From positions 21,327 to 59,531 of the forward strand of contig DAICZA010000002.1 in NCBI GenBank assembly GCA_027311385.1: a stretch of DNA of 38,205 bases, in the 5' to 3' direction. The notes beneath the pieces were generated by a model. That model searched no databases, was not told the origin of the DNA, and saw only the letters and a list, made by a program, of their open reading frames with translations. The DNA comes from a bacterium (GTDB lineage Bacteria > Patescibacteriota > Minisyncoccia > Phycocordibacterales > Phycocordibacteraceae). Below, piece by piece: positions 1 to 14,249 of the stretch. How positions within the stretch are numbered: the stretch's first letter is position 1; every line of letters starts with the position of its first letter. The translations under genes and the position numbers were made by a program.

Positions 1-195
1 TATTTCGTCAACTATGAAGTAGATGGTATGGCGGGCCATGCAGGGGAGGCTCTCGTACTCAAGTTAAATAAGGGCTGTAATTCCCCAAATCCTTCTGATT
101 GTTCTTATATGACTTACACTATAGATAATGTCTCGGGTATGTATACCCCGAGCGATTTCCAGAAGATAGCTGATTCGATTACACGCGCGCCTTAA
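1..195 (+). CDS. 3' end of a hypothetical protein (partial; probable cargo gene upstream of fusA, not rpsG)
   Basis: Frame 1 is open from base 1 to TAA at 193-195 (YFVNYEVDG...SDFQKIADSITRAP*). AT-richer than fusA, with no resemblance to S7. Confidence 0.6.
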   Translation, partial: YFVNYEVDGMAGHAGEALVLKLNKGCNSPNPSDCSYMTYTIDNVSGMYTPSDFQKIADSITRAP

Positions 196-202
196 GCGGA
201 AC

Positions 203-230
203 TTGTCTTTTTGAGTAAATGCACTATTGT
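203..230 (+). promoter_or_regulatory. putative sigma70 promoter for fusA
   Basis: TTGTCT-16 nt-TATTGT, 40 nt upstream of the fusA ATG. Confidence 0.4.
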
Positions 231-269
231 GTAGATAACGCCACGGCGCTTTTTATTTTTACTTAATCT

Positions 270-2417
270 ATGAACAGAGACTATCCGCTTGAGAAGGTTC
301 GCAACTTCGGCATCATCGCGCACATTGACGCGGGCAAGACGACCGCGAGCGAGCGCATTCTTTTCTATACCGGCAGCCAGCACAAAATCGGCGAAGTGCA
401 CGAGGGCGAGACGACCACCGACTGGATGGAACAGGAGCGCGAGCGCGGCATCACCATCACCGCCGCCGCTATTACCTGTTTCTGGGCGAAGACCGCCGAG
501 AAGGATAAGAAGGACCTCTCAAAGAAGTACCGATTCAACATCATTGATACGCCGGGACACATAGACTTCACCGCCGAAGTGAAGCGGTCAATGCGCGTGC
601 TGGACGGTGCGGTCGTCGTCTTTGACGGCGTCGCGGGCGTAGAGCCGCAGTCTGAGACCAACTGGCGCTACGCCGATGAAGCACAGGTGCCGCGCATTTG
701 TTTCATTAATAAACTGGACCGCACCGGCGCATCATTTGAGCGTTCCTATGCGAGCATCTTGGACCGGCTCTCGCCGAAGGCCATCCGTATGCAGATTCCC
801 ATCGGCGAAGAGGGTCAGCACGAAGGTTCCGTGGACCTGCTCACGATGAAGGCGTACACCTTCTCGGGGAATATGGGCGAGGAAGTTATTGAGGGAGAAA
901 TTCCGGCGAACCTGCTTGAAGATGCGAAGAAGTACCGCGCCGAACTCATTGAGCGCATCGTGGAGCAGGATGACGCGGCGATGAGCGCGTATCTGGAGGG
1001 CAAGGAGCCCTCGCTTGAAGAGCTGAAGACGCTTCTGCGCAAGGCGGTCATCAACAACGAAATCTTCCCGGTCTATACGGGTTCCGCCCTGAAGAACAAG
1101 GGCGTTCAGCTCGTGCTGGATGCCGTCGTAGACTATCTTCCGTCGCCATTGGACCTCAAGCCGGTCACCGGCACGAATCCGAAAACCGGCGAGCCGGTTG
1201 AGCGCCACGCGTCCGACGAAGAGCCGTTCTGCGCACTCGCGTTCAAACTCCAGACCGACCCGTTCGTGGGCGCGCTGACCTTCTTCCGCGTCTACTCGGG
1301 CACGCTCTCCGCCGGTTCATATGTGTACAACTCCACGACCGGAAGCAAGGAACGCGTCGGCCGTATCGTCCGGCTCCAGGCCGACAAGCGCGAAGAAGTC
1401 GCGCAAGTATTTACCGGCGAAATCGCCGCCGCCGTCGGCCTCAAGGACACGAAGACCTCGCACACGCTCTGCGACGAGGCGAATCCGATTGTGCTTGAGG
1501 AAATCAAATTCCCCGAGCCGGTAGTTAGCTTGCGCATTGAGCCGAAAACCAAGGCCGACCAGGAGAAGATGGGCGTCGCGCTCCGAAAACTCTCGGACGA
1601 AGACCCGACGTTCCGCATCAAGACCGACGACGAGACGAACGAAACCATTATCTCCGGCATGGGCGAGCTCCACTTGGAAATTCTCGTGGACCGCATGAAG
1701 CGCGAATTCAACGTCGTTGCGGATGTGGGCAAGCCGCAGGTGGCGTACCGCGAGACGATTCTCGGCAGCGCCGACGCGGAAGGGAAGTACATCAAGCAGA
1801 CCGGCGGGCGCGGCCAGTACGGGCACGTGAAGATCAAGATGAAGAAGATGGAGCCGGTAGACCCGGAGGCGAAGGTGGCGAAGAACGTCACGCGCGAGGA
1901 CCACTTTGAGTTCATCAACAACATCAAAGGCGGCGTGATTCCGCAAGAATTCATCAGTCCGGTGGAAAAGGGCCTCCGCGAGGCGATGGCACGCGGCTTC
2001 CTCGCCGGCTTCCCGATGGTGGACATCTCGGTGGACCTCTACGACGGCAGTTACCACGACGTGGACTCCAGCGAAATCGCCTTCAAGATTGCCGCATCTA
2101 TGGCGTTCCAGGAAGCGGCTGCGAAAGCAAAGGCCGTCATTCTGGAACCGATTATGCGCGTGGAAGTCATCGTGCCGGAGCAGTTCATGGGCGACATCAC
2201 CGGCAACCTCTCAGGCAAGCGCGGGCAGATAGAGGGCATGGAGGAACGCGGCCTGAACAAGGTCGTGCACGCGAAAGTTCCGCTTTCCGAGATGTTCGGC
2301 TACACCACGACGCTCCGCTCTATGACCGAAGGCCGCGGAAGTATGACGATGGAATTTGACCATTACGACGTCGTCCCGAAGAACGTCGCGGACGATATCA
2401 TCGCGAGCCGGAAATAG
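270..2417 (+). CDS. fusA: elongation factor G
   Basis: [19 protein letters not shown] and NKLD GTPase motifs, GMGELHLE; 715 aa. Confidence 0.99.
2386..2417 (+). repeat. fusA 3'-end direct repeat, copy 1 (in gene)
   Basis: tcgcggacgatatcatcgcgagccggaaatag; 29/32 identical to 2785-2816. Confidence 0.9.
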
Positions 2418-2430
2418 ATAAGTACCGTTT

Positions 2431-2483
2431 GTACAAGGTGGAACCTTGTACGTAACAGCGGCCGCCCGAAGGGCGGCCGCTGT
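2431..2483 (+). terminator. two hairpins after fusA (palindrome plus GC-rich stem)
   Basis: gtacaaggt-gga-accttgtac (2431-2451) and acagcggccgccc-gaa-gggcggccgctgt (2455-2483); weak U-tract. Confidence 0.55.
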
Positions 2484-2497
2484 GGTATCGTTTCTGC

Positions 2498-2728
2498 ATG
2501 AGCACCGTGACCTATATGGTAATTTCCATGGTGAGCTTCCCAGTTTTGATTGGCTATGTGTTCGTTAGACTTGCGTTCCCCTCCCGGAGACGGCCGAAGC
2601 CGGGTACAGCAGTCCAGCCACCGCTCACCAGAGGGGTCCCGACGTGGGTCATCGTCCTCCTTATTCTCTTAGTTCTTCCAGGCGTGGTTCTCGCGCTGAT
2701 CATCTCACGCCTCTTCTCGGGAGGGTGA
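2498..2728 (+). CDS. small two-TM membrane protein (cargo between the fusA repeats)
   Basis: 76 aa with two hydrophobic segments; TGg-TATCGT -10 box ends 6 nt before the ATG. Confidence 0.7.
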   Translation: MSTVTYMVISMVSFPVLIGYVFVRLAFPSRRRPKPGTAVQPPLTRGVPTWVIVLLILLVLPGVVLALIISRLFSGG

Positions 2729-2744
2729 TTTTCTTGTCAGTCGC

Positions 2745-2784
2745 TTCCAGTACCTACTGAGAGAATGCCTTTGTGGTACTGGGA
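2745..2784. repeat. hairpin repeat (ACC(T)AC/GTGGT-NN-GGG family)
   Basis: ttccagtacc...ggtactggga inverted repeat directly abutting fusA repeat copy 2. Confidence 0.6.
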
Positions 2785-2816
2785 TCGCGGATGACATCAT
2801 CGCGAGCCGGAAATAA
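2785..2816 (+). repeat. fusA 3'-end direct repeat, copy 2 (orphan ADDIIASRK*)
   Basis: tcgcggatgacatcatcgcgagccggaaataa; differences are only GAC/GAT, GAT/GAC and TAG/TAA. Confidence 0.9.
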
Positions 2817-2832
2817 TTTAGTTTACAAAAGT

Positions 2833-2866
2833 AAAACGGCGAGCATTGCGGCTCGCCGTTTTGTTT
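2833..2866. terminator. bidirectional intrinsic terminator
   Basis: aaaacggcgagc-attgcg-gctcgccgtttt. Confidence 0.8.
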
Positions 2867-2880
2867 GGGGAAAGGTGGGC

Positions 2881-3231
2881 TTACTCGATGCCGAGGCTCC
2901 TTTTGTAGATGTCTTTGATGAACTCAGTTTGTGATGCGAATGCTGTTTTTGATGACTCGTCCATTCGATCCCAGACCTTCTCCATCTGTTTTGCAAGTTC
3001 GGGATTTTGGCCGCGGGTCTGTTCGCGCTGAGTCTGGATGTTCGCAAGGCTTTGACGGTACGAGCGCAAAGCATTATCCAGGCTTTTTTGCATATCGGTC
3101 CTTGCGCGGGCCATGATGGCCTGACTGTGGACGGCATGCGCCGCGCGGAGCTTACGGATCTGTGCGTCTCCCCAGGCCGTGATCTCTTTCTCGGCCGCGG
3201 CGACTAATTCATCAATAGTGGGATTGGTCAT
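2881..3231 (-). CDS. hypothetical alpha-helical/coiled-coil protein (116 aa)
   Basis: Start re-assigned to MTNPT at 3231, which has a GAGGAG SD; ends near the 2833-2866 terminator. Confidence 0.7.
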   Translation of the reverse strand: MTNPTIDELVAAAEKEITAWGDAQIRKLRAAHAVHSQAIMARARTDMQKSLDNALRSYRQSLANIQTQREQTRGQNPELAKQMEKVWDRMDESSKTAFASQTEFIKDIYKRSLGIE

Positions 3232-3343
3232 GTGGCACTCCTCGTTGGTGGCGGATTGACAGGGTACTCCACGATTACATATCCCATATTTTATAGATAG
3301 AATCAATCGCATCGGAATGTAGTGCATTTGCACACCCTGCATA

Positions 3344-3371
3344 TTGACGGCGCTTTCAGGCGCGGTACCAT
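3344..3371 (+). promoter_or_regulatory. sigma70 promoter
   Basis: TTGACG-16 nt-TACCAT. Confidence 0.6.
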
Positions 3372-3377
3372 AGTTCC

Positions 3378-3505
3378 ATGCAGCGTCGACAGAATCTTCT
3401 CGGCCTCCTCCTTACCACCAACGGTGGAGGGTTCGGCCGTGTCTAGATTCTAAAAGAAACCAGATACAACCGAGAGCCTCCACCAGGAGGCTCTCGGTTC
3501 GTTTT
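3378..3505 (+). promoter_or_regulatory. candidate Leu-responsive transcription attenuator (leader peptide 3378-3446 plus terminator 3468-3505)
   Basis: Leader MQRRQNLLGLLLTTNGGGFGRV*; terminator aaccgagagcctcc-acca-ggaggctctcggtt-cgtttt; alternative pairings are available. Confidence 0.6.
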
Positions 3506-3539
3506 GATCTTTCTGCAACCAAGCAAGTAAGGAGGAGTT

Positions 3540-3845
3540 ATGGCAAGCATGCTGTTTACGGAACCGCCCGATGGTCTGTCACTCGAGGAAGTTCACCAAG
3601 CAATCGCCGTCGCAACTGCGCGGTTGAACGGCGAACGGGCGAAGATGGACGTTGTCCTCTTTGCGCAGGTGTACGTCGGCCCGATTGTCGTTACCCCGGG
3701 ACGGGAGGTAACGTCCTTCATTGTGTCGTACTCGGACAAGGACGCTGACGCGCCGGTATCGGTAGACACGGCGCTCAAACGACTTATTGATTCCCGGAGG
3801 CGGGACCGGTGGTGGTACCCGCGCCGCGATTGCTATTGCGCATAA
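3540..3845 (+). CDS. hypothetical protein (101 aa)
   Basis: Strong AAGGAGGAG SD; followed by a terminator. Confidence 0.7.
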   Translation: MASMLFTEPPDGLSLEEVHQAIAVATARLNGERAKMDVVLFAQVYVGPIVVTPGREVTSFIVSYSDKDADAPVSVDTALKRLIDSRRRDRWWYPRRDCYCA

Positions 3846-3870
3846 CCCGTTACCAGCGGGGGAGTGCATT

Positions 3871-3917
3871 CGGCCGCCGTTCGCCCACAAGGCGAATCGG
3901 CGGCCGGTTTCTTGTTT
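3871..3917 (+). terminator. intrinsic terminator
   Basis: cggccgccgttcgcc...ggcgaatcggcggccg followed by gtttcttgttt. Confidence 0.7.
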
Positions 3918-3969
3918 GTCTTCTTATCTTGCGTTTCTGTCCTAGATTGGTGGTAGAATTGGAAGACGT

Positions 3970-4206
3970 ATGGATATCGAGAAACAAAAGAAGAATGCTC
4001 GGCAGGCAACTATTGTATGCATAGTATTCTTGGTTGTATCTGTGTATTTTGGTGTAAAGGTCTTGTATCCCGACCTCGGAAATGAACCCGCTCATTTGTT
4101 TGATCCTCTTTATAACCTGGTTGCTTTTATCTTGGCGGCCCCACTCACACTTTATTATGCGATCCTAGCAGTATTTAGATTTTCCAAGTTACAGGGACTG
4201 AAATAG
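3970..4206 (+). CDS. small two-TM membrane protein, AT-rich
   Basis: 78 aa with two hydrophobic helices; TGg-TAGAAT -10 box 10 nt upstream. Confidence 0.7.
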   Translation: MDIEKQKKNARQATIVCIVFLVVSVYFGVKVLYPDLGNEPAHLFDPLYNLVAFILAAPLTLYYAILAVFRFSKLQGLK

Positions 4207-4239
4207 CAGAGGGGAGGTTACCCCCCTCCACGTGGCGGT

Positions 4240-4268
4240 TTGCATTTGTAAAGAGTTTTGCGTATAGT
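4240..4268 (+). promoter_or_regulatory. sigma70 promoter for tuf-rpsJ
   Basis: TTGCAT-17 nt-TATAGT. Confidence 0.7.
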
Positions 4269-4389
4269 GCTCTATAACGCATCTTGGCGTCGCTCTTTGG
4301 CTTGTCTGCTTTTGTGAGTCGGCAAGCTTTGGAGTTTGTTCCGACTCGCGTCGGAGTTATTCGTGATTAACAGAATAAATTAACCGATT

Positions 4390-5595
<1,206 letters not shown>

Positions 5596-5603
5596 CTACT
5601 TGC

Positions 5604-6044
5604 ATGGCAACAGCGGCAAAACCGAAAGCAAAACCGGCGGCGAAGAAAGCCGCGGCAAAGGTCGCGGCGCCCGCGAAGCGCGCATCCGCGCCGCGGGCGA
5701 AAGCCCCGGCCAAGAAGGCCGCCACGGCCGCTCCGGCGGAGCACAAGCTCCGCATCCGCGTCCGCGCCTATGAGCACAAGATTCTGGACCTCTCGGTGAA
5801 GCAGATTATGGACACTGCCGCCCGCTTTGACGCCGTCGTCGTCGGCCCCGTGCCGCTCCCGACCGAAATCAAGCGCTGGACGGTGAACCGCTCTACGTTC
5901 GTCTACAAGGATGCGCGCGAGCAGTTTGAAATGCGCGTCCACAAGCGCCTCATTGATATCATGAACCCGTCCCCGAAGGTGATTGAGGCCCTCACGAACC
6001 TCAATTTACCCTCCGGTGTGACGATAGACGTCAAGATGGTCTAA
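5604..6044 (+). CDS. rpsJ: 30S ribosomal protein S10 with an N-terminal Ala/Lys/Pro-rich extension
   Basis: LRIRVRAYEH, GPVPLPT, REQFEMRVHKRLIDI. Confidence 0.97.
   Translation: MATAAKPKAKPAAKKAAAKVAAPAKRASAPRAKAPAKKAATAAPAEHKLRIRVRAYEHKILDLSVKQIMDTAARFDAVVVGPVPLPTEIKRWTVNRSTFVYKDAREQFEMRVHKRLIDIMNPSPKVIEALTNLNLPSGVTIDVKMV
5984..6044 (+). repeat. rpsJ 3'-end direct repeat, copy 1 (in gene)
   Basis: 61 nt; 53/61 identical to 7657-7717. Confidence 0.95.
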
Positions 6045-6061
6045 CTTCGCTCGGTTGGGCG

Positions 6062-6099
6062 AACAACACAGACGGTCCCGGTGACCGTCTGTGTTGTTT
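6062..6099. terminator. intrinsic terminator after rpsJ
   Basis: aacaacacagacggtc-ccggt-gaccgtctgtgttgtt, a 16-bp perfect stem. Confidence 0.8.
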
Positions 6100-6144
6100 A
6101 GTATGGGTGTGCGACGGTGTGCTACTGTAAAAGCACATCGAGGT

Positions 6145-7659
6145 ATGCAAGATGCGCTCAAAGACTTCGTATTGCAAGAACGAAAGAGAGGCGTTTCCGA
6201 CTCTGATATCACCCATGCTTTGCAAGGCGCGGGATGGCAGGTCGCTGACATCGAGATGGCGCTGGCGACACTCCCGAGTACCCCGGCGTCTACGTGGCGT
6301 ATGGGCGTATTGGCAATAGGGGGAATTGTAGCCATCGCGTTTTTGGCGACACTTATCTTTCTGATGTTTCGCGCGCCGTCCGCAACGTCAACTGGCGGCA
6401 CGGCGCGCACAGTCGTTGCACCGGTCGCTTCGGCGTCTCCGCAAGATGTCTCGCCTCCAGTATCTGTCGCGCAGAGCACGACCACGAGCCAATCGACGCC
6501 GACCGCCAACACATTCGCGCTTACGAGCATCTTTTTAAAAGATGATCCGACGGCGCAGCGCATTGCGACGGGCGCACAGAGTAGTGTCGATATCCGCACG
6601 TTTTCGTTGAAGATTGGAGACGCGACTGCTGTTGGTACCGATTCCTTCGCGTATCGTCTTGTTAGTGCGTTGCGTATGCTTGGATACGTTCCCGGCTCCG
6701 CAGGCGGGCAATATATGTCGGAATCATTACTGTTTCCTTTCGAGCGGGATAACAATCTCCCCGTATCAGATATGGTCAATGCGCAGGTTCTAAAAACGCT
6801 TGACGCCGAGCTTGCAGTCCGAGAGACCAAGGACGCACAGCTCTCCGCACAATTCCCGCTCGCGAAATATGTTACGGCACCACCGGTTGTTAACGAGCCG
6901 ACGGAGGAGCATGCCGCAGCGCTGTTCACGATTGCCTTCAAGGCATTGCCGTCGCAGCTGGTTGTGTGGAATGAGAAGAACTTCCAGACCTATCTCGCCA
7001 AACAGGTGACAGGGTCGTACGCAGGACTCGGCACGCCGAACTACCGCGTTTGCCTCGCGTTCTTGTACCCGGAGTTTGGAGACGCTTGTGCGGTCATACA
7101 TAAAAAAGTGTCCGGCTTCTGGGGAAGCGACTTTTCCATTGCCACCACGCTTCTGCACGAATATGCACATTACCTCGACAAGAACCTGTATGCTCCGGAG
7201 CAGGGGACGTCACTCGGTATCATAGACACGTCAGGGTTCTACGCCATTTCATACGATACGAGCAAGGGAACGGTCACCAGTAACGGGTGGACGGAATATC
7301 CCTTCCTCAGGCCGAACGATGTCGCAAACGAGTTTGTCTCAAGTTATGCTGAAGGGTGGGGCAATGACTCTATTCATACGGCGTATGAAGACTTCGCGGA
7401 ATCATTTGCCTTATACGTGACCGGCGGGCGGATTTTCCGTGAGCTCGCAAAGACCTCTCCGGTACTGAGCGAGAAGTACTTGTGGCTCAAAGAGCACGTC
7501 TTCGGTGGGCAGGAGTACGATACGGGAGACGTCGCGAGCATCGCATATCTCAAGGCCCACGCAACTGCATCCGGAGCGGATGCCGTAGCGACCAAGGCAT
7601 TCAATGTTATTGATTACGCTACACAACTTCCAGATTTTGACTGGAGTTACACGTTCTGA
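6145..7659 (+). CDS. membrane-anchored extracellular zinc metallopeptidase (HEXXH zincin); cargo between the rpsJ repeats
   Basis: Start at ATG 6145 (GAGG upstream). Short cytoplasmic N-domain, one TM helix, S/T/P linker, LLHEYAHYLD, FVSSYA...EDFAESFALY. Confidence 0.8.
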   Translation: MQDALKDFVLQERKRGVSDSDITHALQGAGWQVADIEMALATLPSTPASTWRMGVLAIGGIVAIAFLATLIFLMFRAPSATSTGGTARTVVAPVASASPQDVSPPVSVAQSTTTSQSTPTANTFALTSIFLKDDPTAQRIATGAQSSVDIRTFSLKIGDATAVGTDSFAYRLVSALRMLGYVPGSAGGQYMSESLLFPFERDNNLPVSDMVNAQVLKTLDAELAVRETKDAQLSAQFPLAKYVTAPPVVNEPTEEHAAALFTIAFKALPSQLVVWNEKNFQTYLAKQVTGSYAGLGTPNYRVCLAFLYPEFGDACAVIHKKVSGFWGSDFSIATTLLHEYAHYLDKNLYAPEQGTSLGIIDTSGFYAISYDTSKGTVTSNGWTEYPFLRPNDVANEFVSSYAEGWGNDSIHTAYEDFAESFALYVTGGRIFRELAKTSPVLSEKYLWLKEHVFGGQEYDTGDVASIAYLKAHATASGADAVATKAFNVIDYATQLPDFDWSYTF

Positions 7660-7717
7660 GGCCCTCACGAACCTCAATTTGCCCTCCGGCGTCACCATCG
7701 ACGTCAAAATGGTGTAG
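7657..7717 (+). repeat. rpsJ 3'-end direct repeat, copy 2 (orphan EALTNLNLPSGVTIDVKMV*)
   Basis: First 24 nt identical to copy 1, then 8 third-position synonymous differences; begins in the TGA stop of the cargo gene. Confidence 0.95.
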
Positions 7718-7866
7718 CGCGCTTCCAAAACTACTGCATCTGCGTTGTTGCGACTTCGAGAATTTCTTCCGTCGTACAGCAGAGTACGCCTCCAGAAATC
7801 GCCTCCCCGTGCCTCGCAACTGAAGCTTTCTGAAGACGCTCTGGAATTCAAGGACAGCCAAGATAC

Positions 7867-7900
7867 ACACAACCGCCCGCAAGGGCGGTTGTGTCGTTTT
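7867..7900 (+). terminator. intrinsic terminator
   Basis: acacaaccgccc-gcaa-gggcggttgtgt-cgtttt. Confidence 0.8.
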
Positions 7901-7901
7901 C

Positions 7902-7930
7902 TTGCATCTTTTGGGGCCTTCGTGTAGAGT
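7902..7930 (+). promoter_or_regulatory. sigma70 promoter for rplC-rplD-rplW-rplB
   Basis: TTGCAT-17 nt-TAGAGT. Confidence 0.7.
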
Positions 7931-8017
7931 GCTCCTAACGCTACGAACGGTGCCCGAGACCGGTCCTATGGCAGAACGCGCGATGCGTCTGCTTCGCGCG
8001 TTTTGCTTTAAAAAACA

Positions 8018-8632
8018 ATGAAATTCATCCTCGCCAAGAAAGAAGGAATGACCCGGATTTTCGGGGAAGACGGCCGCGCCCGCGCGGGGACCATTCTGCT
8101 TGCCGACTCGGTGACGGTGACGCAGGTGAAGACAAAGGAGGGCAAGGATGCCTACGCGGCTGTCCAGGTGGGCCAGGGCGTCCGCCGCACGAAGAACATC
8201 AGCAAACCGGTCTTGGGGCACACGAAGGGGAAGGGCTACTCGGCACTCCGCGAGTTTCGCGGCGCCGAAGGCGCCGCGGTGGGCGACACGATTGATGCGT
8301 CGGTCTTCGCCGTGGGTGACGTCGTGCGTGTGTCGGGCCTTACGAAAGGCAAGGGCTTCGCCGGCGTGGTGAAGCGCCACGGCTTCCACGGCGGTCCGCG
8401 CAGCCACGGCCAGAAGCACACCGAGCGCTCCCCGGGCTCCATCGGCGGCTCGGGCGGCCGCGCGGGCGGCCGCGTCGCCAAAGGCATCCGTATGGCCGGC
8501 CGTATGGGGAGCGACCGCGTGACGGTCACGAATCTGAAGGTGCTCGCGGTGGACGCGAAAGCGGGCGAGATAATCGTGAGCGGCGCCGTCCCCGGCCGCC
8601 GCGGTACGCTGCTTGAGATAGTCTCCGCATAA
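8018..8632 (+). CDS. rplC: 50S ribosomal protein L3
   Basis: KGKGFAGVVKRHGF, PGSIG, MAGRMG. Confidence 0.98.
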   Translation: MKFILAKKEGMTRIFGEDGRARAGTILLADSVTVTQVKTKEGKDAYAAVQVGQGVRRTKNISKPVLGHTKGKGYSALREFRGAEGAAVGDTIDASVFAVGDVVRVSGLTKGKGFAGVVKRHGFHGGPRSHGQKHTERSPGSIGGSGGRAGGRVAKGIRMAGRMGSDRVTVTNLKVLAVDAKAGEIIVSGAVPGRRGTLLEIVSA

Positions 8633-8642
8633 TTTGAATACC

Positions 8643-9353
8643 ATGGCTACCGCAAAGAAAACCACGAAGAAAGAATACGTACCGATTGAAGCGGCTATTT
8701 TCTCTATGGAAGGGAAGCAGGTCGGCTCCACTACACTTCCGGAGAACCTCTTCGGTCAGCCGTGGCGCGCTGACCTCGTGCACCAGGTGACCACCGCGAT
8801 GCAGGCCAACCTGCGCCAGAACCGCGCACACACCAAGGACCGCTCGGAGGTCTCGGGCGGCGGCAAGAAGCCGTGGAAGCAGAAGGGCACCGGCCAGGCG
8901 CGCCACAGCTCCACGCGCTCGCCGATTTGGCGCCACGGCGGCATTACCTTCGGCCCGCGCTCAACGCGCGACTACAGCGAGAAAATCAACAAGAAGATGC
9001 GCGTCGGCGCACTGCTCTCGGTGCTCTCCAAGAAGGCGAAGGACGGCGAGATTATTCTCGTGGACAAATTTACCTTTGCGGCGCCGAAGACGGCGCTCGC
9101 AAAGACGGCGCTCGTGGCGCTCGCAAAGGGAGCGGATGCCGGCGTGCTCACAGCAAAGAAAAAGAACGCCGCCCTGCTTGCACTCGCGTCGTACGAGGCG
9201 AACACGATTAAGAGCTTCGGGAATTTCGGCAGCATAGAGACGGAGGAGTTGCGCAACCTGAATCCGGTGGATGTGCTCTCGCACAAATACCTCGTCATTG
9301 AGAACCCGGAGGCGGCATTTAAGGCGCTCACTGTGCGCGCGAAGTCTAAATAA
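8643..9353 (+). CDS. rplD: 50S ribosomal protein L4
   Basis: TKDRSEVSGGGKKPWKQKGTGQAR; start set at ATG 8643. Confidence 0.97.
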   Translation: MATAKKTTKKEYVPIEAAIFSMEGKQVGSTTLPENLFGQPWRADLVHQVTTAMQANLRQNRAHTKDRSEVSGGGKKPWKQKGTGQARHSSTRSPIWRHGGITFGPRSTRDYSEKINKKMRVGALLSVLSKKAKDGEIILVDKFTFAAPKTALAKTALVALAKGADAGVLTAKKKNAALLALASYEANTIKSFGNFGSIETEELRNLNPVDVLSHKYLVIENPEAAFKALTVRAKSK

Positions 9354-9359
9354 ATTACT

Positions 9360-9728
9360 ATGGCAATCTTCGGCGACAAAAAGAAAGAAAAGAAAGAGAA
9401 AAAGGGTGCGGCGCGCCGCCGTGCACGCACCGCACCGAGCGCTGCCGGCATCGCGCACGAGATTATCCGCGCGCCGTGGTTCTCCGAGAAGGCACTCATC
9501 ATTACCGAGAAAGGCGTCTACACCTTTGACGTTCCCGCGCGCGCGACGAAGGCTTCTATCGCGGGCGCCGTCAAAGAGATTTATAACGTGGCTCCAAGGA
9601 AGATTCGCATCGTGAATCTGCCCGCCAAGAAAAAGACCCTGCGCACGAAGCGCGGCGAGGGTTCTCGCGCCGCGCGCCGCAAAGCGTATGTGTACCTCAA
9701 TGCAGGCGATAGCATCCAGTTTGCATAA
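9360..9728 (+). CDS. rplW: 50S ribosomal protein L23 (basic N-terminal extension)
   Basis: P..SEKA, YTFDV...ATK, RKAYVYL; position in the operon. Confidence 0.95.
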   Translation: MAIFGDKKKEKKEKKGAARRRARTAPSAAGIAHEIIRAPWFSEKALIITEKGVYTFDVPARATKASIAGAVKEIYNVAPRKIRIVNLPAKKKTLRTKRGEGSRAARRKAYVYLNAGDSIQFA

Positions 9729-9737
9729 TTTCCAGAT

Positions 9738-10586
9738 ATGAAAACGTACAAGCCCACTTCCAAAAGCCGCCGCCAGATGACCACCCTGCCGTACAAGCAG
9801 TTGCTTTCGGGCGACGCGCCGCACAAGCCGCTTCTCAAGAAGAAGGGGAATCAGGGCGGTCGCAACGCGTTCGGACGCATTACGACGCGGCACCAGGGCG
9901 GCGGCCACAAGAAGCGCTTCCGCGACGTGGATTTCAAATACGACAAGAAAGATATCCCGGCGAAGATTGAGACGGTTGAATACGACCCGTTTCGCAGTGC
10001 GTTCATCGGGCTCGCGCTCTACCGGGACGGCGCGCGCCGCTACGTCATCCTGCCGAAAGAAGTGGCGGTCGGCAGCACGTTCGTCGTGTCCGAGAAGGCG
10101 CCGCTCTCGCCGGGGAACCGCCTTCCGCTCGGGAAGATTCCGGTCGGCACGTTCATCTACAACGTTGAAATTACGCCGCTCGCCGGCGCGCGCCTCGTCC
10201 GCTCGGCGGGCAACTACGCCGAAGTGGTTGCGCACGACGCGGGCTACGCACAGGTGAAACTCCCGTCAACGGAAATCCGCAAGATTTCCGACCTTTCGTG
10301 GGCCAGCATCGGCGCCGTCGGCAACGAGGAATACAATCTCGTCGTCATCGGCAAGGCCGGCCGCAGCCGCTGGCTCGGTATCCGCCCGACGGTACGCGGC
10401 ACCGCGATGAACCCGGTAGACCACCCGCACGGCGGCGGCGAAGGCCGTCAGGGCCGCGGGCTCCGCCGCGCAAAGAGCAAGTGGGGCAAGCCCACCGGCA
10501 AGGGACAGAAGACGAGGACCCCCAAAAAATACTCAAACGTGTTTATTGTCAGCAGGCGTAAAGTTGGAAAGAAACGCAAAGGTTAG
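9738..10586 (+). CDS. rplB: 50S ribosomal protein L2
   Basis: GRNAFGRIT, EYDP, VRGTAMNPVDHPHGGGEG. Confidence 0.99.
   Translation: MKTYKPTSKSRRQMTTLPYKQLLSGDAPHKPLLKKKGNQGGRNAFGRITTRHQGGGHKKRFRDVDFKYDKKDIPAKIETVEYDPFRSAFIGLALYRDGARRYVILPKEVAVGSTFVVSEKAPLSPGNRLPLGKIPVGTFIYNVEITPLAGARLVRSAGNYAEVVAHDAGYAQVKLPSTEIRKISDLSWASIGAVGNEEYNLVVIGKAGRSRWLGIRPTVRGTAMNPVDHPHGGGEGRQGRGLRRAKSKWGKPTGKGQKTRTPKKYSNVFIVSRRKVGKKRKG
10527..10586 (+). repeat. rplB 3'-end repeat, copy 1 (in gene, AT-rich codons)
   Basis: Encodes KYSNVFIVSRRKVGKKRKG*. Confidence 0.92.
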
Positions 10587-10594
10587 CCGACCTG

Positions 10595-10635
10595 CCCCGT
10601 AGCCAACCGAGCGAAGCGAGGTTGTGGTACCGGGG
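10595..10635. repeat. hairpin repeat (CCCC.../GTGGT-NN-GGGG family) between the rplB repeats
   Basis: ccccgtagccaacc-gagcgaagcga-ggttgtggtaccgggg. Confidence 0.65.
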
Positions 10636-10637
10636 AG

Positions 10638-10697
10638 AAGTACTCAAACGTCTTCATCGTCTCCCGCCGCAAGGTCGGCAAAAAGAGGAAAGGATAA
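10638..10697 (+). repeat. rplB 3'-end repeat, copy 2 (orphan, host-like codons)
   Basis: Same 19-aa peptide; 14 of 19 codons plus the stop differ synonymously; shared core tactcaaacgt. Confidence 0.92.
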
Positions 10698-10734
10698 TTT
10701 TACAAAGCACCCAGTAGGCGATTCTGCTGAATCG

Positions 10735-10764
10735 AAAAGCTCCGCACATTCGTGCGGGGCTTTT
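10735..10764. terminator. intrinsic terminator
   Basis: aaaagctccgcac-attc-gtgcggggctttt. Confidence 0.75.
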
Positions 10765-10827
10765 GCTATAGTTGACTCTAGACGAAGAACTTTTTTGTCG
10801 AATTTCCACCAACCGGACAAGGAGAAG

Positions 10828-11049
10828 ATGATGAAGAACGCAGATAGCGGAGTACGACCTATTTCAGAGGAAATGAGACGGCGAATCGAAGCAGGTCTTC
10901 GCGATTTGAGCGATCCCAATTCAGTTACACGGAGACGTTATAACGCGGCCGCGGAGAAAGGGGTCAAGTTGCTCAAGCCACTTGAAGATGTCATCGCCAG
11001 GTCGGAATGTCTGACCGAGTCTGATTTAGACATCGTCATAAATGTATGA
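10828..11049 (+). CDS. hypothetical protein (about 73 aa)
   Basis: AAGGAG SD before MMKNAD; TGc-TATAGT upstream; terminator at 11056-11087. Confidence 0.65.
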   Translation: MMKNADSGVRPISEEMRRRIEAGLRDLSDPNSVTRRRYNAAAEKGVKLLKPLEDVIARSECLTESDLDIVINV

Positions 11050-11055
11050 CACAAA

Positions 11056-11087
11056 GGCCGTTCCCTCGGGAACGGCCCGTGGTTTTT
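11056..11087. terminator. terminator between convergent genes
   Basis: ggccgttccc-tc-gggaacggcc followed by a T-tract. Confidence 0.7.
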
Positions 11088-11843
11088 TTATCTGTACTCC
11101 GGCTTCAGGATGTTCGCGAGTTCTGATGTTGGAATACGGAGCGTTTGCGGTCCGGCGGCATAGGGGGCGACCGCGTAGGGAGGGAAGAGAATGACGAGAT
11201 TTTGGTTATCAAAAAAGAAGTTTGCAAAATTCTTATCGTCGGGCGTCGTGCCGGGGTTGATGAAGGCCGCGTCGGCGCCTTGGCCGATGATAGCGGGGAG
11301 TTTTGCGCGCGCGAGCGACGAGAGCGTGCCGAGATAGTCCGCACCCGGCGCAAACAGGTCGGCGAGCGTGAGCGCCGCGCCGCTTGTCGTGTCAAAGGTG
11401 AAGGTCTTGAAGAATGTGTTGCCGTGCGCGCCGAGCGTGTCCTCGTAGACGGTGAAGATGTAGGAGACGGTGTGCGACGACGACGCGGTGAGGTACACGA
11501 TGTTGAGTGTCTCTTTGCGTCCGGCGCCGAGACCAATCTTCGCGGCGTCCTGCGGCGTGAGCGTAGCGAAATTGCCGTCAGACTTGAATTGCGCGATGGT
11601 GTCGGCGACGAAACGCTTCATCTCTGCCACGGCGACGGTGTTTTCGGCGGCGGCGAGCGGCGTGCTGGTCGCATAATTGGCGGCGATATCGTAGTAAGGT
11701 GCGTGTTCTACGTAGTGGTTCCCCGGCAGGGCGACGGTCGCTCCGGGTGCCTTCGCCGGCACCGGGCGCGTGGCGGCGTAGAGGACAATACCGATGAAAA
11801 TGACGAGTATGACGGCTATCCCAATGTAGGTATTTCTCTGCAT
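11088..11843 (-). CDS. membrane-anchored RsiV/PdaC-like (DUF3298-type) protein
   Basis: N-terminal TM; GAHGN, LTLADLF and F.PY.VAPYAAG motifs. Confidence 0.8.
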   Translation of the reverse strand: MQRNTYIGIAVILVIFIGIVLYAATRPVPAKAPGATVALPGNHYVEHAPYYDIAANYATSTPLAAAENTVAVAEMKRFVADTIAQFKSDGNFATLTPQDAAKIGLGAGRKETLNIVYLTASSSHTVSYIFTVYEDTLGAHGNTFFKTFTFDTTSGAALTLADLFAPGADYLGTLSSLARAKLPAIIGQGADAAFINPGTTPDDKNFANFFFDNQNLVILFPPYAVAPYAAGPQTLRIPTSELANILKPEYR

Positions 11844-11968
11844 AGTATGTGCAAGTGTACCGCAATTTCGCGGTCTTGTGGGGATTTTCTGTAGTTCACG
11901 CTACATACACGATATGTCAAGGTTCTGGAATGACCTAGGATTTATGAGGGTGTTTCGGAACGGTAGAG

Positions 11969-11997
11969 TTGACTCCACCGGCCTCTTCCTGTATCTT
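11969..11997 (+). promoter_or_regulatory. sigma70 promoter for rpsS and downstream genes
   Basis: TTGACT-17 nt-TATCTT. Confidence 0.65.
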
Positions 11998-12032
11998 TCC
12001 TGTATCCCGCTGCGCGGGCTTTTCATTACTTT

Positions 12033-12377
12033 ATGTCACGCTCACTTAAGAAAGGGCCCTTCGTGGACGCAAAACTCCTGAAGAAGCTTATTGATAAGAA
12101 ACCGGCATCGGCCGGGGTGATTAAGACGTGGGCGCGCCGCAGCCAGATAAGCCCCGAGATGGTCGGATTTACCCTCGGCGTGCACAACGGCAAGTCTCAT
12201 ATTGACGTGCTCATCGCCGAGGAAATGGTGGGGCATCGCTTGGGCGAATTCTCGCCGACCAAGAAATTCCTCCGCCACGGCGGCAAGATGCAGAAGGAGA
12301 TGGAAGCGAAGAAGCAGGAGGCCGAAATCGCCTCCGCGAAGGCTGCCAAGGAGTCCCCTGCGCCGGCGAAGAAATAA
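12033..12377 (+). CDS. rpsS: 30S ribosomal protein S19
   Basis: [24 protein letters not shown]; C-terminal extension. Confidence 0.98.
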
Positions 12378-12378
12378 T

Positions 12379-12699
12379 ATGGCAACCGCATACCTCAAGA
12401 GCTATAACCAGACACCGCGCAAGGTCCGCCTTGTCGCGGACCTCGTGAAGGGTAAGTCGGTTCCCGCGGCGCTTGCGGCGCTTGAATTCCTGCCGCGCCG
12501 CGCCGCGGAGCCCATCGCGAAGCTCATCAAGAGCGCGGCCGCCAATGCAAAAGAGAAGGGCGAAGATGCGGATGCGCTCACGGTGCGGTCGGTTACCGTG
12601 GAGAGCGCGGGTATGCTGAAGAAGTATATGCCGCGCGCGTTCGGCCGCGCCTCGGCCATCCGCCGCCGGAAGTCCCAGGTGAAAGTAACGCTCGCCTAA
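12379..12699 (+). CDS. rplV: 50S ribosomal protein L22
   Basis: PRKVRLVADLVKG, PRAFGRA; true start at ATG 12379. Confidence 0.96.
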   Translation: MATAYLKSYNQTPRKVRLVADLVKGKSVPAALAALEFLPRRAAEPIAKLIKSAAANAKEKGEDADALTVRSVTVESAGMLKKYMPRAFGRASAIRRRKSQVKVTLA

Positions 12700-12704
12700 T
12701 TGCT

Positions 12705-13406
12705 ATGACACACATCGTCCATCCTTACGCGCACCGCCTCGGCATCATCCGGGACTGGAAGAGCCGCTGGTTCGCGACCGACAGCAAGAGCTATCGGGAA
12801 AATATCAAGGTGGATGAGACTATCCGCCGTTATCTGACGAAGCGCCTGCGCGGCACCTACACGAGCAATATTGAGATAGAGCGCTCGCAGAGCGAACTGC
12901 GCGTCATCATCTCCACGGCGCGCCCGGGCCTCGTCATCGGCCGCTCCGGCGAGAACGCGACCAAGCTCCGCACCGACCTGACCAAGGTCGTAGAGAAGGC
13001 ACAGGGGCACCCGCTCCCCGCCGGCAAGCAGGTCAAGCTTGATATCAATGAAATACGCCAGCCCGAGACGGACGCGGCGGTCGTTGCGTATATGGTCGCC
13101 GAGGGATTGGAGAAGCGTATGCCGTTTCGCCGCGTGCTGAAGCAGACAGTGGAGAAGGTCATCGCCGCGCGCGAGGTGGAAGGCGTACGCATCGCCATTT
13201 CGGGCCGCCTCGGCGGCGCGGAGATGAGCCGCAAGGAGGAGGTGAAGAAGGGGCGCATCCCGCTCCAGACCTTCCGCGCGGATATTGATTTCGCCCACGA
13301 ACAGGCGTACCTGCCGTACGGCGTCATCGGCATCAAGGTATGGATTTTCCGCGGCAACGTGTATCAGGACAAGAAGACATCGGTGCATCTGCCGGAAATC
13401 AAATAG
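12705..13406 (+). CDS. rpsC: 30S ribosomal protein S3
   Basis: RPGLVIGRSG, SGRLGGAEMSR, GRIPLQTFRADID. Confidence 0.98.
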   Translation: MTHIVHPYAHRLGIIRDWKSRWFATDSKSYRENIKVDETIRRYLTKRLRGTYTSNIEIERSQSELRVIISTARPGLVIGRSGENATKLRTDLTKVVEKAQGHPLPAGKQVKLDINEIRQPETDAAVVAYMVAEGLEKRMPFRRVLKQTVEKVIAAREVEGVRIAISGRLGGAEMSRKEEVKKGRIPLQTFRADIDFAHEQAYLPYGVIGIKVWIFRGNVYQDKKTSVHLPEIK

Positions 13407-13429
13407 CGAAGCGAATATGATTTCCGAGC

Positions 13430-13560
13430 ACCCCGGCACCACTTTTGCGAAACGAAACGAAACAACCATGACTACTTACATTACAATTGCTTATGAAAAT
13501 AAAAACTTGTCCGCAAGACAAGTTTTTGGGGGCGATTGCACGGCAAAAGTGGTGCGGGGT
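13430..13560. repeat. MITE/REP-like inverted-repeat element between rpsC and rplP
   Basis: accccggcaccacttttgc ... gcaaaagtggtgcggggt; internal hairpin aaaaacttgtc-cgcaa-gacaagttttt. Confidence 0.75.
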
Positions 13561-13600
13561 AAGCGTTTGCTAAGTTCGCGGACTCGCTAAGAAAACGCTT

Positions 13601-14023
13601 ATGCTGTTTCCTAAAAAAGTGAAGCACCGCAAATGGCAGACCCAGCGTCTGTCCGAGAAGCGGTTGAATCGCGCCGACACGCGCGGTATTACTGTCGCGT
13701 TCGGCACCTTCGGGCTCAAGGCGCTTTCGCCCGCGCGCGTGACCAGCAACCAGATAGAGGCGGCGCGCAAGGTGCTCACCCGCGCGACCGCGAAGACGGG
13801 TAAGCTCTGGATCCGCATCTTCCCGGACCGCCCGGTGACGATGAAGCCGGCGGAAGTGGGTATGGGTAAAGGGAAGGGCGACCCGAAGCACTACGTCTTC
13901 CAGGTGCGCCCCGGCCGCATCCTCTTTGAAATGGACGGCGTGGATGAAAAAATCGCCCGCGCGCACCTGCGCCAAGCGGGTATGAAGCTTCCGGTCAAGA
14001 CGACCATCGTCACGCGCTCATAA
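13601..14023 (+). CDS. rplP: 50S ribosomal protein L16
   Basis: QIEAAR, WIRIFPDRP, MGKGKG. Confidence 0.98.
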   Translation: MLFPKKVKHRKWQTQRLSEKRLNRADTRGITVAFGTFGLKALSPARVTSNQIEAARKVLTRATAKTGKLWIRIFPDRPVTMKPAEVGMGKGKGDPKHYVFQVRPGRILFEMDGVDEKIARAHLRQAGMKLPVKTTIVTRS

Positions 14024-14042: not shown

Positions 14043-14249
14043 ATGACAAAAAAAGAGACAATGACCACGAAGACTGACCAGGAGCTTTTGAAGCTCCTCG
14101 CTGACACGCGCACCGCGCTTCACGCGGAGCGCTTTGCGGCCGCCGGCGCGCGCGCCAAGGACAGCAGCGCGAAAGGGAAGCTCCGCGCGACCATCGCGCG
14201 CGTGCTCACCGAACAGCACGCCCGTTCCCGCACGGCCGCCGCCGCATAA
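14043..14249 (+). CDS. rpmC: 50S ribosomal protein L29
   Basis: LRATIARVLTE; synteny; alternative start at 14061. Confidence 0.9.
   Translation: MTKKETMTTKTDQELLKLLADTRTALHAERFAAAGARAKDSSAKGKLRATIARVLTEQHARSRTAAAA

Follow-up and report, generated by a model that had tools for sequence, protein, structure and literature searches.

Three translation genes (fusA, rpsJ, and rplB) in the 38,205-bp stretch of DNA analysed here, hereafter the window (G000:C22:21327-59531), each carry their last codons and stop twice, in differently spelled copies of the same peptide, and nine more gene ends of the same genome follow this pattern. The source genome, G000, is a metagenome bin of 637,727 bp in 47 contigs with 58% G+C; it was compared with 120 other members of its genus (121 genomes in all, labelled by G-numbers, with L-numbers for fetched loci). 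Throughout, T1 denotes the tail copy that closes the working gene and T2 the untranslated remnant copy behind the insert. We consider it about an even bet (a probability near 0.5) that the duplicated tails were left by small mobile modules, each terminated by a hairpin resembling a repetitive extragenic palindrome (REP), which entered conserved gene ends together with the donor's own gene end. The evidence lies in the anatomy of the events, their recurrence over genes and genomes, a divergence between copies that is constrained by coding, the fixed polarity of one hairpin family (HP-A), and one event that contains a gene related to the REP-associated tyrosine transposases (RAYTs).

Duplicated gene ends in the window

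The two fusA tails (2386-2417 and 2785-2816) are identical at 29/32 nt, and both encode ADDIIASRK and a stop, TAG in the first and TAA in the second. For rpsJ, the pair spans 5984-6044 and 7657-7717, with 53/61 nt identical, EALTNLNLPSGVTIDVKMV plus stop in both, and the stops TAA and TAG; for rplB, 10527-10586 and 10638-10697 share 42/60 nt and encode KYSNVFIVSRRKVGKKRKG followed by TAG and TAA, respectively. Every difference within the three pairs is synonymous, just as the initial annotation of the window had described. Table 1 lists the features concerned.

Table 1. Features of the window at and around the three duplicated gene ends
Feature	Position	Strand	Remarks
fusA (EF-G)	270..2417	+	working tail T1 = last 10 codons + stop, 2388-2417
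Two strong hairpins after fusA stop	hp1 2431-2451, hp2 2455-2483	+	-28 kcal/mol, z -7.8
ORF76, 76-aa cargo with hydrophobic stretches	2498..2728	+	no Pfam match above cut-off, no family
REP-like hairpin, CCAGTACC..20 nt..GGTACTGG	2747..2782	+	3' half matches HP-A; z -2.9; 2 nt upstream of fusA remnant
fusA remnant T2 (ADDIIASRK and stop)	2785..2816	+	followed by two-way terminator 2833-2862
153-aa ORF, no known family	2881..3342	-	family search
rpsJ (S10)	5604..6044	+	working tail T1 at 5985-6044
16-bp perfect hairpin after rpsJ stop	6062..6098	+	-21.4 kcal/mol, z -7.0
ORF522, 522-aa cargo (start uncertain)	6091..7659	+	N-terminal membrane stretch, HExxH motif
rpsJ remnant T2	7658..7717	+	no hairpin upstream of remnant
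~130-nt dispersed repeat directly 3' of rpsJ T2 stop	7718..7850	+	4 copies in G000
rplB (L2)	9738..10586	+	working tail T1 at 10527-10586
HP-A hairpin at rplB, CCTG + CCCCGTAGCC..GGTACCGGGG	10591..10635	+	GTAG-tagged, REP-like
rplB remnant T2	10638..10697	+	genus-typical allele
DUF3298 gene between rplB and rpsS	11088..11843	-	Pfam family

As the initial annotation held, the inserts are true insertions behind conserved tails. Logan contigs from three runs of one study (X1, X2, and X3), which may include the source sample, were compared with the window: X1 contigs matched positions 2000-3307 and 5837-8425 with 0 differences and spanned all four fusA and rpsJ junctions, and X2 contigs bridged single junctions. 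At rplB, contigs break at the repeated hairpin, and the side from the hairpin to T2 alone was bridged by a listed contig (X3, 10601-10899); a mis-join at this hairpin is disfavoured because matching tails flank each hairpin copy.

The rplB insert (10587-10637) consists solely of the T1 stop, 4 nt, HP-A, and 2 nt; what had been annotated as a cassette is a 46-nt hairpin element that carries no cargo. The G+C content at third codon positions (GC3) is 0.47 in T1 compared with 0.8-0.9 elsewhere in the gene. T2 is identical at 43/45 nt to the working tails of four relatives, the best relative of T1 reaches 37/45, and the two copies differ from each other at 18/60 nt, including a TCC/AGC serine switch; judged by these comparisons, the remnant T2 is the resident allele. 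A similar low-GC3 rplB tail, with neither hairpin nor remnant, occurs in G017, and in G127 a different hairpin precedes a 7-codon remnant. The rplB-rpsS spacer varies in the genus from 64 nt to >1.4 kb. Repeated rounds of insertion had been proposed behind rplB; the DUF3298 gene found there is, however, not part of the event, because many genus members likewise have the end of a minus-strand gene at this position, as judged from the flanks.

At rpsJ, the TGA stop of ORF522 overlaps the first base of T2. No homologue of ORF522 was found among the 120 other genus genomes, and a zinc-peptidase-like fold may be suggested as a weak lead only. The repeat of about 130 nt behind T2, whose other G000 copies lie at C42:28759-28815, C45:11759-11881, and C9:8692-8819, is followed by the genus-typical terminator (7867-7894) and then the rplC leader. 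It also lies directly 3' of the rpsJ stop in G023 and G002; the G023 copy is about 90-95% identical despite a differing rpsJ tail, and seems to have brought along its own last codon and TAG. An Rfam search of window positions 1-14000 at E up to 1 returned merely three sub-threshold chance matches and, on that search, the window hairpins and the repeat belong to no curated RNA family. The last 19 residues of S10 are identical in 11/16 relatives, and perfect protein identity of T1 and T2 is unsurprising because gene tails are highly conserved in the genus. The fetched sequence included both genes in 16 relatives, whose rpsJ-rplC spacer measured 151-4570 nt; in 5/16 it has a minimal terminator-promoter form of 151-216 nt, which corresponds to the empty sites that the annotation had led us to expect. 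G001 has an independent 17-codon rpsJ duplicate, and in G115 and G045 rpsJ is followed by HP-A, a remnant of 4 codons, (V)KMV and stop, and then the genus-typical terminator.

At fusA, the sequence to ~2487 (T1 and the two hairpins) is contiguous with the gene in G050, G010, and G046, and hp1 has a second copy on contig C17. Window positions 2488-3389 (ORF76, hairpin, T2, terminator, and 153-aa ORF) are absent from the same site in G050; T2 and its terminator resemble those of G054. A second partial fusA copy on the same contig was found in 5/40 genomes searched. An HP-B hairpin (a second family, described below) adjoins a 66-codon remnant in G047, an HP-A variant accompanies a 15-codon remnant in G016, and the G010 remnant, of 42 codons, runs into a 241-aa ORF as a fusion. 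Relatives with other cargo and independent tail duplicates, which had been proposed as a test of the idea, are thus at hand for rpsJ (G001), fusA (G016, G047, and G010), and rplB (G127). Other parts of the annotation fared less well. The palindromic REP-like hairpins adjoining the second tails were overlooked; the -10 promoters ascribed to the cargo were not borne out, as a consensus scan gave 4 sites vs. 3.1 expected and none before ORF76 or ORF522.

Three smaller observations belong to these genes. A 43-nt segment of the fusA-tuf spacer (3871-3913) is 98% identical in G050 and 93% in G013, far above neighbouring sequence. S10 has a Lys/Ala/Pro-rich N-terminal extension of ~45 residues (5604-5740) that the usual S10 fold does not include. 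A contig joint of low support, with a 21-nt side, bypasses 5577-5904.

Twelve events in the genome

The genome was scanned for tail repeats, defined as short frames that lie no more than 6 kb downstream of an ORF of 100 aa or longer and match its stop together with six or more of its final eight residues. Twenty matches were obtained, of which nine are tail events and 11 are nucleotide repeats, low-complexity sequences, or unresolved; an equal-sized upstream control gave three matches, all 6/8 and Arg-rich. The tail repeats are not a product of chance. With gene names assigned from Pfam, the nine tail events are fusA, rpsJ, and rplB in the window, RNase R and SMC on C9, L7/L12 on C14, RNase Y on C42, and TrmD and RpoD on C46; three head events were found in addition, at TypA (C33), TsaD (C12), and DnaE (C9). 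The modules are located within the first or last 4-66 codons of conserved housekeeping genes. As read from the sequence, T1 completes the gene and T2 remains untranslated just 3' of the hairpin foot. A hairpin ends 0-21 nt upstream of the remnant in 10/12 events; in the other two, rpsJ and TrmD, the stop of the cargo ORF lies 0 and 8 nt upstream of T2.

Of the codons that differ between copies in the nine tail events, 71 are synonymous and three are non-synonymous, in agreement with the proposal that both tails had been shaped by coding selection. An untranslated copy diverging after local duplication would be expected to show mostly non-synonymous changes, and the copies are therefore orthologous gene ends, each with its own history in a functional gene of a separate lineage. 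A drop in GC3 restricted to the span of the repeat is seen in rplB, SMC, RNase Y, and RpoD.

The L7/L12 event is more complex than the others because, besides the direct remnant, the minus strand of C14 contains a 19-nt inverted tail copy behind a terminator between the two tails (rc 10019-10194). Contig C42 holds another tail-scan match at 14249, unassigned to an event. On its minus strand, a 585-aa ORF ends in LLDIRII and stop (rc 17675), with near-copies 0.8 and 1.4 kb downstream (LLDIRAI and stop, rc 18451; LLDIRAV and stop, rc 19042), which may represent either additional events or a family of repeats.

Hairpin families and their polarity

HP-A (CCTG CCCCGTAGCC..GAGCGAAGCGAGG..GGTACYGGGG) is about 45 nt long; its predicted structure (-10.8 kcal/mol) is an imperfect, bulged hairpin in which the 5' GTAG stays unpaired. 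A copy behind RNase Y (C42) is 98% identical to the rplB HP-A and occupies the same position; further G000 copies lie at TypA, TsaD, and DnaE, and the fusA insert ends in an HP-A variant (2747-2782). A strict HP-A pattern found 14 copies in 10/121 genus genomes, five in G000 and one in each of nine others, and the stem co-varies through compensatory changes. A clear recoded gene-end repeat accompanies 9/14 copies (the five in G000, rpsJ in G115 and G045, YchF in G050, and a class II aminoacyl-tRNA synthetase in G132) and a weak one accompanies the G005 copy. Two copies, in frame within RNase HII (G054 and G017), have no repeat, and two at one L28-head locus (G059 and G007) have an ATG-level remnant at most.

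The orientation of HP-A is constant. In 9/9 clear cases, and also in the G016 fusA variant, its GTAG (5') side faces the working gene and its GGGG 3' foot the remnant. This is independent of the strand of the gene, the hairpin lying on the same strand for tails and on the opposite strand for heads. Such polarity indicates strand- and sequence-specific handling, since a mere block to an exonuclease should work either way round.

The copies in RNase HII (L061/G054 and L066/G017) sit at the same place (1501-1541 of each locus, minus strand) and add ~15 residues, with no flanking repeat. At the L28 head (L065/G059 and L067/G007), two occurrences of ATGGCAAG, separated by 22 nt, lie between HP-A and the gene, and the 3' foot adjoins a bare ATG; this layout suggests nested events.

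HP-B (CCCAAACTAGGACATCSGATGTCCTAGTTTGGG) lies upstream of the RNase R and SMC remnants. Two adjoining HP-B-type hairpins were also noted at C23:3968-4023, within a frame that by eye resembles leucyl-tRNA synthetase.

RAYT-like genes and the C9 locus

The window itself contains no recombinase, and in this respect the label "integrase-less" given to the system was apt. It does not extend to the genome, which has one tyrosine recombinase (C22:849-1379), two large serine recombinases (C1:18652 and C33:2094), and five RAYT-like genes of the Y1 (HUH) class, one of them inside an event. No serine or tyrosine recombinase lies near any event in G000, and TnpB was not found in the genome. Four of the five Y1 proteins score above the PF01797 cut-off (the C9 protein, of 217 aa, at 35.8 bits), and the fifth reaches 22.3 vs. 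23 bits; by eye, they have the motifs H-x-H (NHYHLL or NHFHLL) and Y..H.NP. Their sole NCBIfam match is NF047646 (REP-associated tyrosine transposase), at 20-41.5 bits vs. an equivalog cut-off of 80. On these scores they are distant relatives of RAYTs, RAYT-like rather than equivalogs. Each of the five genes has a private palindrome family at or within its borders, as do seven related public loci.

The event that contains a RAYT-like gene is on C9, between the convergent genes for RNase R and SMC. The order there, with (-) marking the minus strand, is RNase R-T1, ORF163(-), SMC-T2(-), HP-B, RAYT-like(-), HP-B, RNase R-T2, terminator, ORF82(-), SMC-T1(-). The two intergenic copies (2874-3399 and 4255-4592) are unalike (score 16), the one containing an ORF of 163 aa and the other an ORF of 82 aa; because these stretches are unrelated, the locus is best described as two alternative alleles in tandem, joined by the RAYT-like element. 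An origin by gap repair ("ends-in") was considered and rejected, since the two copies differ.

The C9 element occurs at the same convergent locus in seven public Patescibacteria metagenome-assembled genomes (MAGs; labelled Kaiserbacteria, Paceibacterota, and others). Across the eight genomes of this type, three have no remnant, two have a remnant of RNase R alone (one of them decayed), one has that of SMC alone, and two have both. The RNase R remnants measure 15, 24, 13-14, and ~24 codons, those of SMC 18, 27, and 14 codons, and the junction positions vary among genomes. These differences point to independent recurrence and to decay of remnants, so that intact remnants would be young. At L093, L095, and L097, the RAYT-like element adjoins the stop codon and there is no remnant; by this layout, donors of the required kind exist.

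Three RAYT-like ORFs (C8:80-766, C11:61695-62423, and C6:16677-17252) contain their own palindrome in frame, giving repeated peptides such as LGGEASK, FRNPS, and MKDLGGLS. Separately, a Moraniibacteriota MAG (L124) has a ~1.24-kb tandem duplication (1607-2328 and 2846-3522) that takes in the final portion of a RAYT-like gene together with the start of an NAD-dependent DNA ligase-like gene; its differences are mostly synonymous.

Proposed mechanism and alternatives

On the reading that we favour, a module would be a hairpin alone, a hairpin with an ORF, or a hairpin with a RAYT-like Y1 (HUH) transposase gene, and it would carry on its gene-proximal side a complete copy of the gene end, the same protein in another spelling. 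DNA of related Parcubacteria would be taken up (ComEC is present in G000), and an incoming single strand would pair with the chromosome through the conserved gene. Its hairpin-terminated 3' end would then be joined into the resident gene end, either by a hairpin-specific Y1 nuclease or by illegitimate joining, and whatever lies from the joint to where homology ends would thereby be duplicated. We infer these uptake, pairing, and joining steps from the products. Later spread to relatives could proceed by ordinary homologous recombination, with the gene body as one arm and T2 as the right arm, and deletion between repeats would leave only short, diverged repeats. A more specific version, in which REP-like hairpins spread between genomes by transformation as "prosthesis-carrying" homing modules and a RAYT-type transposase joins the hairpin 3' end, is tentative, and we hold it possible while doubting it. 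In that version each module would own a long-lived, recoded end of a single essential gene; pairing through the conserved gene would let it land and reside there in any relative, and the joining transposase would act on single strands.

Several results weigh against this reading. The five RAYT-like genes of G000 all lack HP-A at their flanks, and only one of them sits in an event. The expectation that RAYT-rich genomes have many events failed: with tails alone scanned, and ~2 kb at two G052 contig ends left out, G052 has nine Y1_Tnp hits and one tail event, and G123 has none of either. Events also occur in G016 (87% complete) and G132, neither of which has a Y1_Tnp hit. The two G000 events that have no hairpin at the remnant have counterparts in rpsJ of G001 and fusA of G010. 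Low GC3 does not extend leftward beyond the repeat, so no long donor patch is visible upstream. No rplB with HP-A and no remnant, as a donor should have, was found among the 120 other genus genomes, none of which has HP-A beside rplB. At fusA, either tail may be the resident copy, since for each of them the DNA that follows is matched in relatives. Neither an empty-site joint nor a circle joint was seen among the Logan contigs, which drop rare variants and are therefore uninformative on such forms.

The RAYT-related part of this counter-evidence and the missing donor patch keep plain homology-facilitated illegitimate recombination (HFIR) a serious rival, although we regard it as unlikely. Here donor DNA entering by natural transformation would be anchored through the conserved gene, and its non-homologous 3' tail would be trimmed back to the first stable hairpin and joined at random inside the resident tail, with no dedicated element or enzyme and with hairpins serving merely to halt an exonuclease. 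That many unrelated hairpins adjoin remnants (HP-A, HP-B, and those at RpoD, L7/L12, and in G127 and G052) would follow naturally, as would the variable junction positions and the form of the mini-events, in which tail, stop, spacer, and hairpin resemble a natural gene 3' end; the presence of ComEC and a RAYT count that does not track the event count fit as well, and HFIR is documented in three transformable species (PMC6382021). Trimming by an exonuclease does not account for the constant face that HP-A turns toward the remnant, nor for the repeats at 9-10/14 HP-A copies, which seem tied to the arrival of the element, nor for a RAYT element bounded by remnants in 5/8 genomes at one locus. The laboratory rate is, moreover, 10^-2 to 10^-3 of that of homologous transformation (PMC6382021), yet G000 alone has 12 events.

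The initial annotation envisaged small circles with an orthologue's tail and cargo, acquired by reversible RecA crossover within 7-24 nt of identity. The order T1, insert, T2 is indeed the product expected of a single crossover, the low-GC3 patch coincides with the repeat span, two intergenic alleles stand in tandem at C9, and some repeats open with a run of identity at their 5' edge (24 nt in rpsJ, 13 nt in rplB, 11 nt in RNase R, and 7 nt in fusA). Crossover in such runs nevertheless cannot explain rplB, where 13 nt is the longest, or RNase Y, where 7/7 codons differ between the copies and there is no identical run at all; in SMC the run is merely 5 nt. The rplB and RNase Y inserts (111 and 72 nt) are too small for a double-stranded circle, and hairpins of fixed polarity are left unexplained; we judge the proposal improbable. 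Far less credible still is site-specific integration of islands whose attP carries a replacement gene end. Gene-end replacement by integrating elements is well known and G000 has the serine and tyrosine recombinases already listed, but twelve unrelated targets would have to be served by three enzymes, none of them near an event; junctions differ between genomes at the same gene, and inserts go down to 58-111 nt. An artefact or a purely local origin is just as hard to credit. A 47-contig metagenome bin, with the rplB junction in a repeated 45-nt hairpin where contigs break, invites suspicion of a strain-chimeric assembly; independent contigs, however, span the fusA and rpsJ events without difference, and the same anatomy recurs in many other assemblies. 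Local duplication followed by divergence is opposed by the 71:3 ratio of synonymous to non-synonymous codons and, at rplB, by the closeness of T2 to relatives and its distance from T1.

If modules do move with a donor's gene end, each insertion keeps a datable footprint, in which the hairpin separates a foreign gene end from the resident one at constant polarity, and these footprints make REP spread testable by comparative genomics and single-strand DNA assays. Mobile DNA could then colonise even a gene-dense 0.64-Mb genome inside essential gene ends (EF-G, S10, L2, L7/L12, RpoD, DnaE, SMC, and others) while the genes are kept intact, and colonised ends would become hot spots for the gain of accessory membrane or secreted proteins. 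For annotation, remnants and low-GC3 tails would mark recent gene flow among uncultured bacteria of the Candidate Phyla Radiation.

Relation to known systems

Integrating elements that bring a replacement gene end include e14 in icd, the dusA islands, and the tRNA and tmRNA islands; they have a dedicated integrase and a fixed core site, and the displaced resident end remains as a partial copy. The likeness is that the incoming element supplies a substitute for the end it displaces, often synonymously different, and that the target gene stays whole. Unlike these, the events described here have no integrase, have variable junctions and inserts as short as 58 nt, and affect heads as well as tails; no identical core is present at both junctions of the RNase Y event, and no recombinase lies at any event. 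ISCR1 and the complex class 1 integrons also offer a HUH-type element with one defined end, neighbour capture, rescue by homologous recombination, and partial duplication of a flanking segment. ISCR enzymes are, however, Y2 rolling-circle proteins that act on a kilobase scale and do not recode an essential gene end, whereas the genes here are Y1-type and an essential gene end is recoded. Insertion sequences of the IS200/IS605 group have left and right subterminal hairpins, insert 3' of a fixed tetra- or pentanucleotide, and leave the target unduplicated. Membership of this group is not indicated: the left repeat edges share no target word, most modules have one hairpin, and long recoded repeats flank them. 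The integron attC site has the R''/R' boxes RYYYAAC and GTTRRRY, which HP-A fits by eye with one mismatch per box, and no cassette array was seen.

Free-standing homing endonuclease genes resemble the present events in that a mobile ORF lies behind a gene whose C-terminal segment occurs twice, with Allomyces atp6 as a further case. In fungal mitochondria, C-terminal cob duplications have been described behind such ORFs (PMC6279837). The hairpins and ORF-less mini-events found here have no counterpart there, and no LAGLIDADG, GIY-YIG, or HNH domain was detected in seven ORFs examined in and around the inserts (window positions 2498-11843); HNH and GIY-YIG were not searched genome-wide. The in-frame insertion of palindromic elements into protein genes of a small genome is known from Rickettsia (PMC3733652), and HP-A in RNase HII of G054 and G017 behaves in this way. 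The Rickettsia elements are translated within the protein, whereas most elements here avoid this by means of a spare gene end.

In HFIR, one homologous anchor and one illegitimate joint bring foreign DNA beside a conserved gene, as seen in laboratory selections (PMC6382021). The joints there have 3-10 bp of microhomology vs. 0-2 nt of ambiguity here, often between G and T, and here no donor patch is visible upstream of the repeat; a regular hairpin at the joint, fixed polarity, and short gene-end repeats were not found in the portions of that report drawn on.

The closest likeness is to REP/RAYT systems (REPtrons). HP-A is a short imperfect palindrome with a 5' GTAG at gene ends and sometimes within ORFs, and a Y1 HUH gene is flanked by its own palindromes. 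REPs are known at or within gene ends, and their GTAG termini often supply a TAG stop (PMC3733652). The E. coli TnpA-REP protein binds and cuts single-stranded REPs on both sides, requires GTAG and a stem mismatch, and carries out strand transfer in vitro (PMC3333891); comparable single-strand, strand-specific biochemistry would fit the fixed polarity of HP-A. The mechanism of REP dissemination is stated to be unresolved (PMC8266576). We found no description in the literature of RAYT-like elements in Patescibacteria, nor of REP-like hairpins bounded by recoded gene-end repeats; the word "duplication" occurs 0 times in the main text of PMC3733652, whose separate Additional file 3 on intragenic REPs may bear on the point. 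The differences are also clear. Copy numbers here are tiny (5-9 per family vs. tens to hundreds per genome), five paralogous RAYT-like genes with a palindrome each are packed into 0.64 Mb, the proteins fall below the NCBIfam cut-off and the ORFs can hold palindromes in frame, and elements lie inside essential gene ends together with a recoded duplicate. If the version with "prosthesis-carrying" modules is true, these recoded repeats would be the first natural footprints of REP dissemination, which would have proceeded by transformation between genomes and not by hopping within one.

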